This document shows, piece after piece, positions 272 through 5,260 of a DNA stretch of 64,000 bases. This DNA comes from a virus. Lineage: Duplodnaviria > Caudoviricetes. The position numbers and the translations under genes were made by a program. Location of the stretch: IMG/VR virus record IMGVR_UViG_3300042350_003801. One strand, given 5' to 3'. Under the pieces are notes generated by a model. That model made no database searches, was not told the origin of the DNA, and was given only the letters and a program-made list of their open reading frames with translations. Each line of letters starts with the position of its first letter. Within the stretch, counting starts at the first letter, position 1.

Positions 272-300
272 TTGACAGACGGGGTTGAATGGGTTATTAT
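272..300 (+). promoter_or_regulatory. sigma70-type promoter facing a non-coding module
   Basis: TTGACA(272-277)-17 nt-TATTAT(295-300). Confidence 0.75.
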
Positions 301-413
301 AGTTTCATACAAGGCAACCGGCGCAAGAAGCGCATAATATAAGCGGCCACAATAATCCTGACTTTTAATAAAAGGATATAAAGAAAGGGCCGCAGATTGC
401 GAACCCATTTGTA

Positions 414-800
414 TCAGACGAGAATTCCTCCATTATTTCTAATTTCCTCAGTGAACATACTAACCAAATCTTTATCCTGCTGAATCTCTTCTTTTGTCTT
501 GAAGTTGAAGAGAGAATCAAAGAGTTTCGCTACTTTGATAGCATCGGAAAGGTGAATAAACTGTGCAGCAGAGAATCCAGTGGCGAGATGAGTAAGTCTC
601 CAGCGAAAACGTACAGGGGTTTCTTTGGTTGCAGGGCCGTCATCTTCAAGATCGCGGCGATAAACCATGCTGGCATGAACTGCTGTGTTCTTGCCTTTCC
701 AGCGAACTTGAATAGGCCGATCATACAATCTTTCACCGGTGTCTTTATTCATCATGCCGATAAGAATGGAAGCCATGGAGCCGATTGTTTGAGTACCCAT
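414..800 (-). CDS. hypothetical protein
   Basis: ORF 128 aa; palindrome-type promoter upstream, terminator-like hairpin downstream. Confidence 0.65.
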   Translation of the reverse strand: MGTQTIGSMASILIGMMNKDTGERLYDRPIQVRWKGKNTAVHASMVYRRDLEDDGPATKETPVRFRWRLTHLATGFSAAQFIHLSDAIKVAKLFDSLFNFKTKEEIQQDKDLVSMFTEEIRNNGGILV

Positions 801-837
801 TAAGAATACAGCATTTTTGGTGCCGTGCTCTTATTGT

Positions 838-860
838 GTGCCACCTTAAAAACCGTCCAC
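838..860. promoter_or_regulatory. palindromic operator with divergent -10 boxes
   Basis: gtgccaccttaaaaaccgtccac; TATTCT (minus) and TATACT (plus, 890-895) each 29 nt from the palindrome edge. Confidence 0.75.
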
Positions 861-961
861 CGAGCCTGTCTTACTGGCTTGTGGTCTGCTATACTGATTA
901 CATCGGGCGCAAGAAGCGCAATAAACAAAAGGCCACAATAAACCTGCCCTTTAATACTGTA

Positions 962-998
962 CAAAGAATAAAGAAAGGGGGAGGATTGCTCCCTCCCC
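962..998 (-). terminator. Rho-independent terminator (near-identical copy at 4090-4131, variant at 2920-2955)
   Basis: ggggagg/cctcccc stem followed on minus strand by ctttctttattctttgt. Confidence 0.8.
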
Positions 999-1006
999 GG
1001 TTATAC

Positions 1007-1474
1007 TCAGTCTGCAATCATCGGACATTTAATACCTTCCCACGCCCTTGAATAGTTATCAATAACCTCGTCAATAAGAGATTCTAGCTTAGGGTGATAA
1101 GTGTAATTACAAACAATCTCTTCCGGTTCATTGCCGAGAACAATCCACAATCTAGCTCGCATTCCGTCTTTGTTAATGTAGACTGTGGCCGCATCCACTG
1201 AAACTATAATATCTGAAGCAGAATGGCGGATTTTTGTATTAGATTGCTCTTGGTCAATCTTGATAGTTTCCTCACCATCATTTACAGCAGTGATAGTGAA
1301 TCCTTCCTGTTGAAACTTGGCAAGAAGAGACCTAACGGGAACCGACCAATTAAAAGCCGTTTGGAAAGGTTTTAATTCGTGGCTAGCCATGATGCAATTC
1401 CTTGAAGACTCCTTAAGAATACCAGAATTGAGAGACAGGGATCTTAGTGTGTGCCAGTTCAACAACTGGCACAC
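1007..1474 (-). CDS. hypothetical protein (true start probably downstream of the promoter at ~1416-1459)
   Basis: ORF; its 5' end overlaps a palindrome promoter. Confidence 0.6.
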   Translation of the reverse strand: MCQLLNWHTLRSLSLNSGILKESSRNCIMASHELKPFQTAFNWSVPVRSLLAKFQQEGFTITAVNDGEETIKIDQEQSNTKIRHSASDIIVSVDAATVYINKDGMRARLWIVLGNEPEEIVCNYTYHPKLESLIDEVIDNYSRAWEGIKCPMIAD

Positions 1475-1476
1475 AC
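1447..1476. promoter_or_regulatory. perfect copy of the iterated palindrome (13-bp arms, 4-nt spacer)
   Basis: gtgtgtgccagtt-caac-aactggcacacac; minus-strand TATTCT 29 nt from the core. Confidence 0.85.
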
Positions 1477-1545
1477 AGCCTGCTTTTGGTGCTTACATAA
1501 ATAATACCAAAAAACCTTTAATAAGGATGTGATTTATTATTCCTA

Positions 1546-1773
1546 TCAATAATAAAGAGATGTAGTTTTTGTTATAGGTTTAGCCCTTAAAAGCGACTCA
1601 CCTTTAATCAGTCTCCAAGCCACATATTTGCGCTTCCTACATTCTTCCTCCGCCAGCTTCTCTTGATTGAAACGACTGTTTCTGCCGTCAAGTCTAATAA
1701 CTGAACGATCACCACATGCTGGTGCTAATTCTCCCGTTAGATTAACTTGGAAAAACTCTGCATAAGTGGCCAT
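1546..1773 (-). CDS. hypothetical protein (start revised to ATG 1773)
   Basis: Upstream in-frame extension is a leader shared with the 2029 gene (1771-1808 vs 2716-2753). Confidence 0.6.
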   Translation of the reverse strand: MATYAEFFQVNLTGELAPACGDRSVIRLDGRNSRFNQEKLAEEECRKRKYVAWRLIKGESLLRAKPITKTTSLYY

Positions 1774-2028
1774 TGGTCTGTGGAGCGGTTGACCTTCATA
1801 CAATAGCACCGGGAAGCCCGACCCGTAAAGCATCTGTCAGCGATTGCCCACACTTGAGCGGAAACTCTTTTTATCGTAGATTCTGGCGGAACCGATGGGC
1901 TATCCTACCCTTGCCACCAGAATACGAAAAAACCGAAAGTATAATAAACCGATGGCCATTCTTAATTACAATAAAAAGAGCCAGAGGGATTCTTATACCC
2001 CCCGGCCCGTTATACTATCGGTTGGGTA

Positions 2029-3216: not shown

Positions 3217-3267
3217 TGAAGGGAAGCGATTGGGTTGGAAAGGAAACAGGGAAACCTTTTGTTGTAA

Positions 3268-3489
3268 TCAATAGGCGTGAAATACCTCTAGGATCTTATC
3301 GTTTTGAACAATCTTGGCATGAGGATAGAATACCCATTTTGAACCAACATTGTTGATTGCATCATAAGCATCCTCTAATGTTTCGTGAACACTATCTCTG
3401 ACTTCTTCATCATCGTCATTGAAAAAGTAAACAATTAGATCATCTTCGGAAATTAAATTGGCGGGTCTTTTGTTAAAAAAGGGGAACAT
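3268..3489 (-). CDS. hypothetical protein
   Basis: ORF 73 aa, ATG start. Confidence 0.6.
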   Translation of the reverse strand: MFPFFNKRPANLISEDDLIVYFFNDDDEEVRDSVHETLEDAYDAINNVGSKWVFYPHAKIVQNDKILEVFHAY

Positions 3490-3561
3490 TGGATGTCTGG
3501 GGGGTGACTAATGAATAATAGGGCACCTAGAGAGGCTTCTAGGTGCCTCTGGTGCCAATTA

Positions 3562-3897
3562 TTAAGCTGGCACGCTAGCCCTTGACTTCAGGAATGTTAA
3601 TGCTTTATCAACATCTTCTCTTACCCACTTAGGAAGATTTTTATACTGCACAAACGCGATAATCTCATTATGAATCATCATACAACAGTCTGCATAACAA
3701 TTACCCGTTTTGCCTTTCATTTGATTAATTCCATCTAAAGTTATTGCCGCCTGTAGATTCCAGAAGAATCCTGAAACACTATTGGCCATTTTTTCACTTC
3801 CCGTCCCTTTAAGACCAAGACGATTGGCTAGCCATCTTCCCCTATTTGTGGAAAAATGTTCTGTGAACGGAATTCCACCAGGAAAGGGATTGTTCAT
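3562..3897 (-). CDS. hypothetical protein
   Basis: ORF 111 aa directly downstream of a consensus promoter. Confidence 0.7.
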   Translation of the reverse strand: MNNPFPGGIPFTEHFSTNRGRWLANRLGLKGTGSEKMANSVSGFFWNLQAAITLDGINQMKGKTGNCYADCCMMIHNEIIAFVQYKNLPKWVREDVDKALTFLKSRASVPA

Positions 3898-3922
3898 CTG
3901 CTGAAACCTGAACTACAAACAT

Positions 3923-4016
3923 AGAATAAACTGTTTTCTTCTCGTTGTCAATGGTTGATTGATAAGCATTACTAATGGGTCGGGGGCTTGACATACTGGC
4001 CGGGATGGGTTATTAT
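3923..4016. promoter_or_regulatory. divergent sigma70-type promoter pair
   Basis: minus TTGACA(3951-3946)-17-TATTCT; plus TTGACA(3988-3993)-17-TATTAT. Confidence 0.8.
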
Positions 4017-4139
4017 AGTTTCATACAAGAGAAGAAGAAGCGCAAGAAGCGCATCATATAAGCGGCCACAATAAACCTGCCCTTTAATACTGTACAAAGA
4101 ATAAAGAAAGGGGGAGGATTGCTCCCTCCCCGATTATAC

Positions 4140-4334
4140 TCAGTCTTTCATAAGATCGTCTACATTTAATTCCAATCCTTCCCCTATAATTTTGAGTGTA
4201 AGTTCCTCCATCTGTTGATGGGTGAAAACTTCATTTTTATCCATAGGATTTACCCAACCAAGTTTTGTTGGATCTGATAACTTTTCCTTAAGAAGATTGA
4301 GCAAAAAGATTCCTTCCTGGTCTGTGAGTTTCAT
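4140..4334 (-). CDS. hypothetical protein
   Basis: ORF 64 aa. Confidence 0.6.
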   Translation of the reverse strand: MKLTDQEGIFLLNLLKEKLSDPTKLGWVNPMDKNEVFTHQQMEELTLKIIGEGLELNVDDLMKD

Positions 4335-4340
4335 TTTGGT

Positions 4341-4604
4341 TTAGATGGATTGAAAAATGCGGAAACCATAATCACGAAGAAGCACTCTCCCGACAACATT
4401 ATTAATGGCATCTGAGAGTGCTTCTTCGTCTGTATATTGTTCAGAGTAACCATTCAAAGTTATTTCTTGATAGCCTGGAACTTCGAGGTGAATTGTTCTA
4501 CTTTCCCCCACCAACTTTATCTCACATAAGGCAGAAATAATCTCTGCCATTGTGCCGATCGCGCTAATCGTAGAATCCCGATTAACTATACAGTACTCTT
4601 TCAT
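4341..4604 (-). CDS. hypothetical protein
   Basis: ORF 87 aa with palindrome promoter. Confidence 0.65.
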   Translation of the reverse strand: MKEYCIVNRDSTISAIGTMAEIISALCEIKLVGESRTIHLEVPGYQEITLNGYSEQYTDEEALSDAINNVVGRVLLRDYGFRIFQSI

Positions 4605-4677
4605 TTTCAGCTCAGAAAGGTGGGTGACTTGTATAGAATACCCGTTTATCGGGTGAAGCGGTTAAAGTGTGTGTCAG

Positions 4678-5025
4678 TTAAACAACTGGCATATTATCTT
4701 CAAACTCTCCTTTATCACAATACCATACATAATCCTTCTGGAAGATTCCCCCCAGATTGTAATGATGTAGGATAGAGTTGAGGCGCGATTTGGTAGTCTG
4801 TGTCTCCCATCCACAGGAAGAAAGAATCATCTTATTGCCAGGAAAGATGCTGGCAATCTTATGGCCGTGAAGTTTAACTTGAATCTCCCTTGAAGTAGAA
4901 GAAATTCCGCCACTCACATTGAAATACTCACCACGATGTATGATCTCAAAGGAGGTGTTATCTTTCCGCCAATCGGTCTCATTTGAGATGGCGCGAATCA
5001 TCTGTTGCTCAATGATGCGGGACAT
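4678..5025 (-). CDS. hypothetical cyanophage-type protein (start revised to MSRIIEQ)
   Basis: Internal palindrome promoter at 5051-5108; GWETQTTKSRLN motif. Confidence 0.7.
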   Translation of the reverse strand: MSRIIEQQMIRAISNETDWRKDNTSFEIIHRGEYFNVSGGISSTSREIQVKLHGHKIASIFPGNKMILSSCGWETQTTKSRLNSILHHYNLGGIFQKDYVWYCDKGEFEDNMPVV

Positions 5026-5260
5026 TGCGGTTGGAGCTGCTGACTTGTATAGAATACCAGGATTAAAGCCTTGTGCTCTTATTGTGTGCCAGTTGTTGAA
5101 CCGTCCACCTGGCCGGTTAAACCGTCTTAATTCGTGCCATACTGTATTCATTGGGCGGAAGAACCGCGACAGACAAAGAGCCACAACAAACCTACCGTTT
5201 TATAGTCATATAAATAATACCAAAAAACCTCCAATAAGGAGGCTGTTGGTTATACTTAAC

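Follow-up and report, generated by a model that had tools for sequence, protein, structure and literature searches.

Why should a phage carry its best host-type promoters behind its early genes, facing against them? The question arises at the start of a 64,000-nt stretch of phage DNA (IMG/VR record IMGVR_UViG_3300042350_003801, Caudoviricetes; the whole stretch is hereafter called the window), where five intergenic units, each combining a promoter, a 4-bp GC hairpin and a conserved box, oppose the neighbouring genes. The window phage is a lake-water T4-like cyanophage, with a UvsW-type helicase 43% identical to those of Synechococcus phages B23 and B3; megablast and blastn searches of the window region against 50,697 phage records gave no match and no close DNA relative. 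T4-like cyanophages kill picocyanobacteria on a large scale, and little is known of how they control their early genes. All credible genes in the first 6 kb of the window lie on the minus strand; they are small and mostly without a known function, which is what one would expect where such phages keep their early, variable genes. We find that the lineage of this phage, including the cultured phages B3 and B23, has a real, conserved promoter-driven unit for a predicted non-coding RNA that opposes the gene flow after many small early genes. The placement of the unit behind early genes, often one for each, on the strongest host-type promoters of the region points to an RNA-based control layer, and its presence in cultured B3 and B23 makes it directly testable.

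Five promoter-driven units opposite the early genes

The units lie on the plus strand at 272-406 (M1), 887-998 (M2), 2810-2953 (M3), 3988-4131 (M4) and 5135-5244 (M5) and follow one order: a host-type promoter comes first, then the hairpin, then the box GCCACAAYAAWCCT, which is conserved, and last the terminator of a minus-strand gene, met from behind. The original prediction, made from the letters alone, had pointed to five repeated modules with a hairpin and a box, and motif searches gave them exact positions. The hairpin motif GCSSAAGAASSGC occurs exactly five times in 64 kb, always on the plus strand (321-333, 907-919, 2859-2871, 4040-4052 and 5155-5167), and never in shuffles. The box, with 0.09 occurrences expected, is found at 346-359 (GCCACAATAATCCT in M1), 932-945, 2884-2897, 4065-4078 and 5180-5193 (GCCACAACAAACCT in M5) and is likewise absent from shuffles. 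The two predicted stem versions are found where they were announced, with GCGC-AAGAA-GCGC in M1, M2 and M4 (321, 907 and 4040) and the compensatory GCGG-AAGAA-CCGC in M3 and M5 (2859 and 5155).

Each unit also has the plus-strand promoter claimed for it. A scan of 1-9000 for sigma-70-like sites ranks those of M1 (272-300), M3 (2810-2838) and M4 (3988-4016) highest, each agreeing at 10-11 of 12 positions. The M1 promoter (TTGACA, 17 nt, TATTAT) is the top site of the scan with 11/12 matches, its -10 ending 20 nt before the hairpin; M3 has TTGACA, 17 nt and TATTGT, with a TG before the -10, and M4, with the same elements and spacing as M1, stands back to back with a minus-strand promoter at 3951-3923. 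M2 and M5 have extended -10 promoters, read from the sequence as TG-c-TATACT (887-895) and TG-c-CATACT (5135-5143), 11 nt before the hairpin, a type that recurs at this distance in relatives.

A minus-strand terminator-like hairpin seen from behind had been claimed for four modules; all five have one, at 387-406 (core 390-402) for gene 414-800, 978-998 for gene 1007-1390, 2932-2953 for gene 2983-3216, 4111-4131 for gene 4140-4334 and 5226-5244 for gene 5261-5488. The first of these, also seen in folds, is the presumed 3′ hairpin of the M1 RNA. No plus-strand open reading frame (ORF) starts downstream of any of the five unit promoters, as the original prediction had it. A repeat search revealed the units as mosaics, with a core common to all five, two types of left flank (M1, M3 and M4 versus M2 and M5) and three types of right flank. 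Homology between units (repeat families D4 and D6) begins ~30 nt ahead of the -35 and stops ~15 nt after the 3′ hairpin, a span that would fit one small, discrete transcription unit of about 110 nt.

Covariation, orientation and recombination across 78 copies

Searching with covariance models, as had been proposed with the original prediction, extended the family well beyond the window. Models R1 (13 copies) and R2 (49 copies) together gave 78 distinct copies across about a dozen related phage genomes and contigs, drawn from this phage population, six further related metagenome contigs, four IMG/VR contigs and cultured B23 and B3. In the 64-kb window, R1 found only the five known copies, and contigs of the same population added four more just beyond the window start, one of them gene-sense; M1 and M5 are the same copies as L023:10423-10500 and L023:5589-5666. 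A relative reached via a neighbouring protein (L019) has six copies with different stems, and four further relatives have 34. Among the relatives reached via the helicase, four IMG/VR contigs hold 29 copies and four others none. The cultured phages have three copies with R1 and four or five with R2 (B23), and four with R2 (B3), and the covariance model found none in four other cyanomyophages (S-SRM01, Sf-FR1, S-B05 and S-T4). The family is therefore patchy yet spans lineages with helicases 54-68% identical, and the box blocks CAC and CCUGC are kept from the window phage to B23. Pattern scans were less informative: an exact-pattern scan of IMG/VR gave 18 single matches, all chance, and in a metagenome scan 0 of 80 among the matches listed fit R2, which says nothing on prevalence. 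Rfam covariance models run against 1-8000 gave a best E of about 0.7, far below gathering scores, and without an Rfam match a CRISPR-repeat mimic or another known RNA was ruled out. The unit is not described in the literature searched, nor is there an Rfam entry for it.

The predicted covariation of the mini-hairpin held beyond the two stems first seen, since all four stem pairs vary over the 78 copies (G-C/A-U/G-U; C-G/A-U/G-C; G-C/C-G; C-G/G-C/A-U/U-G). In 49 copies, where the loop-closing pair is G-C, C-G, A-U or U-G, 99.5% of cells are paired versus 16-64% in slid controls. Wobble pairs mark the strand, with seven on that of the unit versus one A-C, which would be a wobble on the opposite strand. 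Loops of 4 or 5 nt (AAGAA in 31 copies, GCGAA in 9, ACGAA in 7, also AGGG, GGGCG and GGGG) often have A as first base. The spacer between hairpin and box measures 12, 13 or 14 nt depending on the copy, between flanks conserved on both sides, and the substitutions have no third-position bias. Because spacer length varies between conserved flanks, a mini-ORF on the gene strand (MA(A/L/F)..RF(L/F)R) was excluded, the 1-2-nt indels breaking its frame. Two further candidates were rejected: a pseudoknot between the loop and a downstream UUCUU fits M3 only, and none of a Pho-box, an NtcA site or a gene-strand -10 (TATTAA) was conserved by eye.

Promoters accompany the hairpin throughout. All 49 copies checked have a -10 hexamer with A2 and T6, placed 11-12 or 15-23 nt (mostly 20-23) before the hairpin; a perfect or near-perfect TTGACA stands 17-18 nt away in 20 of the 49, and TGn is present in 22. 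Covariation, wobble strand, promoters and spacer indels therefore point to an RNA element on the unit's strand, and a promoter-proximal element of this kind appears to be the only reading that fits all four.

Orientation is strongly biased, 72 of the 78 copies being antisense to the neighbouring genes. Promoter and unit recur every 0.5-1.2 kb, and in contigs L061 and L062 almost every small gene has one unit 45-55 nt past its stop codon. Altogether, the claim of a repeated, promoter-driven, antisense unit devoid of ORF is supported. Of the six sense copies, five stand immediately ahead of a UvrD-like helicase gene, in five different phages, and the sense copy just beyond the window start is 95 nt upstream of such a gene. 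The sense copies keep the promoter-to-hairpin spacing unchanged, with a promoter of a different type. At L023 12395-14240, just beyond the start of the window, the UvrD-like helicase gene stands between inverted units, one sense upstream and one antisense downstream.

Recombination occurs at the units as well. Contig L028 maps to window positions 302-999 and then 4109-6399, a natural 3133-bp deletion whose junction falls within 24 nt common to the terminator-like hairpins of M2 and M4 (976-999 and 4109-4132). Six genes have been lost here naturally, via a crossover between units. Being repeated, the units also give these phages sites for crossover, through which gene cassettes can be dropped, acquired or exchanged.

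A predicted small RNA and its rivals

We give about even chances to the proposal that each unit is a small independent transcription unit making a non-coding RNA against the small early genes. The original prediction had offered either a family of ~100-150-nt small RNAs or nut-like antitermination sites whose antisense RNA would shut off the earliest genes; an RNA family of roughly 100 nt is, from the sequence, the most economical reading, and the nut analogy did not hold (see below). According to this model, host RNA polymerase would start at the sigma-70-type promoter, whether full (TTGACA/TATTAT) or extended -10 (TGn), and the first part of the RNA would be a short leader, rich in A and some 4 or 13 nt long. 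The 4-bp GC hairpin with its purine-rich 4-5-nt loop would come next, followed by the A/U-rich 12-14-nt spacer, the conserved, mostly unpaired box GCCAC-rm-UAA-w-CCUGC, and an A-rich stretch that leads up to the terminator hairpin of the neighbouring gene, entered from its reverse side. There, at a GC-rich hairpin found ~30 nt past the box in most copies, the RNA would end or be trimmed, giving an abundant early RNA of ~95-115 nt from many gene copies. Folds are consistent with this layout, as the 5′ mini-hairpin and the 3′ hairpin alone are stable and the box is largely open. Hairpin and box may form the recognition module for a trans-acting partner, a protein being likelier than a base-pairing target: the box is conserved in blocks (CAC, UAA and CCUGC) with variable bases between them, which suits a protein better than a contiguous seed.

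Several points weigh against this short-RNA model. Transcription itself, the 3′ end and the partner are all deduced from DNA. The 3′ hairpin, which ends 8-15 nt before the stop codon of the neighbouring gene, is in most copies preceded by an A-tract (5-6 of 8), and only 2-3 of the 8 nt that follow are U; it looks like the gene's terminator from behind, suited to the gene-strand polymerase and not to that of the unit, and only a handful of these hairpins appear bidirectional. With so weak a U-tract on its own strand in most copies, the RNA of the unit could continue into the gene. Folded as a whole, the RNA does no more than modestly better than its shuffled versions (z from -1.7 to -2.3). No base-pairing target was found in the window above shuffled-seed controls, nor in the whole B23 genome with <=2 mismatches. 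Moreover, unit copies are more alike within one genome than between genomes, so that part of the conservation reflects concerted evolution and not independent selection.

Such run-on is central to a different explanation, possible although we think it improbable, in which read-through past the reversed terminator would yield long antisense transcripts that mask or silence the early mRNAs, hairpin and box serving as a nut- or put-like 5′ module with a stabilizing or anti-stop role. On the unit's strand most 3′ hairpins indeed have no U-tract, the position of the unit immediately behind the start site is also that of nut and put sites, and a sense copy is kept ahead of the 1.5-kb helicase gene in five phages. 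Stazic and colleagues are also said to have described, in 2011, antisense RNAs of cyanophage P-SSP7 that cover phage genes and shield them from RNase E. Nevertheless, one site per operon would suffice for this purpose, whereas promoter and unit return with every 0.5-1.2 kb, and strong interference with the early genes would be expected if each of them faced a promoter so close to consensus. Repeat homology extends no further than ~15 nt beyond the hairpin, neither a boxB-type pentaloop nor a boxA-like stretch is conserved, and between the sense copy and the helicase gene lies a TGn-TAGGAT promoter belonging to that gene. The exactness with which the units sit at cassette borders and mediate deletion would instead suit a cassette acting purely at the DNA level, where the antisense promoter is a roadblock or insulator against read-through, the repeats persist by gene conversion and cassette mobility, and the RNA sequence has no function. 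Homogenization of copies within genomes agrees with it, as do unit promoters standing back to back with gene-strand promoters. A roadblock, however, needs neither stem pairs, box blocks nor fixed spacing, yet stem pairs are kept through two-sided changes across lineages with helicases 54-68% identical, CAC and CCUGC persist as far as B23, and the distance from -10 to hairpin is fixed; we consider this explanation unlikely.

Finally, the functional strand could be that of the genes, with the complement of the unit acting as a 3′ untranslated region, a read-through element or the leader of the next minus-strand gene. The unit always follows the gene-strand terminator, and its complement has AGG, 6 nt and GTG, with mini-ORFs of 12-18 codons in four window copies and a fifth in frame into gene 4678-5025. 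But the spacer variation between conserved flanks breaks any such frame, substitutions have no third-position bias, the 7-to-1 wobble count speaks for the unit's strand, the promoters face the opposite way, the six sense copies keep a promoter of their own, and the TATTAA after the terminator has no essential final T of a -10. This makes a gene-strand role very unlikely.

Returning to an RNA predicted on the unit's strand, a doubtful but attractive extension is that hairpin plus box is a phage tag read by a host or phage protein, either in cis as a novel antitermination or anti-collision signal to the transcribing polymerase, or in trans as a highly abundant early decoy soaking up a host factor for RNA handling, RNase E for example. 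If so, one unit per early gene cassette would represent a previously unrecognized layer of early control in T4-like cyanophages.

Known systems and neighbouring features

One close analogue in layout is the promoter-early stem-loop (PeSL) of the T4-type coliphages RB49 and phi1, whose promoter drives the downstream gene and which ends in the Shine-Dalgarno sequence and start codon of that gene (Arbiol et al. 2010, PMC2839356). Both are repeated intergenic modules among small non-essential early genes, both combine a strong sigma-70-like early promoter with a terminator stem-loop (here, gene-strand U-tract hairpins, terminator-like by sequence, beside every unit), and in both, recombination between copies deletes or swaps cassettes, as in the L028 deletion. 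In contrast to PeSLs, the promoter of our unit opposes the genes in 72 of 78 copies with no ORF after it, and the unit has a conserved, covarying and putatively transcribed element (mini-hairpin and box) that has no counterpart in PeSLs.

Lambda OOP RNA resembles the predicted RNA as a small promoter-driven transcript convergent with the 3′ end of a neighbouring phage gene. OOP, however, is single-copy, overlaps the coding end of cII and has its own efficient terminator, while the unit has many copies per genome, and what is conserved in it falls beyond the stretch that could pair with the terminated mRNA.

The likeness to lambda nut (boxA plus boxB) and HK022 put, put forward in the original prediction through boxB, concerns an RNA element close to its promoter, in which a short stem with a purine-rich loop has a single-stranded box nearby. 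It fails on loop identity and on boxA conservation: the loop varies in sequence and length, often begins with A and keeps no GNRA-like fold (G first, A last). A stretch after the box, GCYCTTTAATAA, matches a GCUCUUUA-like boxA at about 9 of 12 bases in the window phage and is replaced by CCAUGAAAUAA or CAAGUUAAUAA in L061-L063 and L065, so that a boxA was ruled out, other lineages not keeping it. The unit differs further in opposing the genes and in being repeated in every cassette, and we know of no N-like protein in these phages.

Among cyanobacterial RNAs, the small RNA Yfr1 has a similar order of 5′ hairpin, conserved open motif and 3′ hairpin, with no sequence relation. CfrI of cyanophage S-PM2 is a precedent for antisense RNA in T4-like cyanophages, although it is a single 225-nt RNA at psbA and not a multi-copy family. 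Apart from CfrI, riboswitch-like motifs are the only cyanophage entries in a review of phage small RNAs from 2025.

Late-type boxes facing the same way as the units had also been predicted. They are present at 1496 and 5209 and have no statistical support, as TATAAATA shows no enrichment (2 in the window versus 4.4 expected). The heptamer ATAAATA is rarer than expected in the window (8 versus 18.8), with seven of its eight copies on the plus strand. Two ATAAATA copies (33781-33787 and 54804-54810) lie ~30 nt upstream of plus-strand TnpB (IS605-family) genes at 33814-35010 and 54836-56014. A genome-contig scan with the phage TnpB as query had no cyanobacterium among its matches.

On the gene strand, a GACAC motif (GACAC, 5-6 nt, AACTGGCACAC) precedes a TATTCT-like -10 by ~27-30 nt and start codons by 20-40 nt, with 31 copies on the minus strand versus 5 on the plus strand window-wide (for example, on the minus strand, 1459, 5094, 5556, 6043, 8030, 13626, 16828, 41163 and 57919), and is also present in L019. 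By its appearance it would be a promoter or activator site specific to the phage, perhaps a promoter of the middle type. To our knowledge, T4-like cyanophages have no T4 middle-mode regulators, MotA and AsiA being absent from the group as far as we know. The arrangement GTGTGCCAGTT, 4 nt, AACTGGCACAC forms a perfect palindrome at 1446-1475 and an imperfect one at 4666-4691, the GACAC promoter motif facing both ways.

Another repeat of the region is a 39-nt block, 95% identical between 1770-1808 and 2715-2753, that holds the promoter and 5′ leader of two minus-strand genes, 1546-1773 and 2029-2718, which are unrelated to each other. Because of this block, ORF callers start both genes too far upstream and give each of them one and the same spurious peptide, LLYEGQPLHR. 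The minus-strand ORF 7346-7957 (203 amino acids) contains, at 7370-7662, a 12-nt unit repeated in tandem about 17-25 times and would encode a protein of four-residue repeats. Elsewhere in the window, a class II aminoacyl-tRNA synthetase (D/K/N type) and an RNA-ligase-like protein are encoded at 45523-47016 and 37917-39404.

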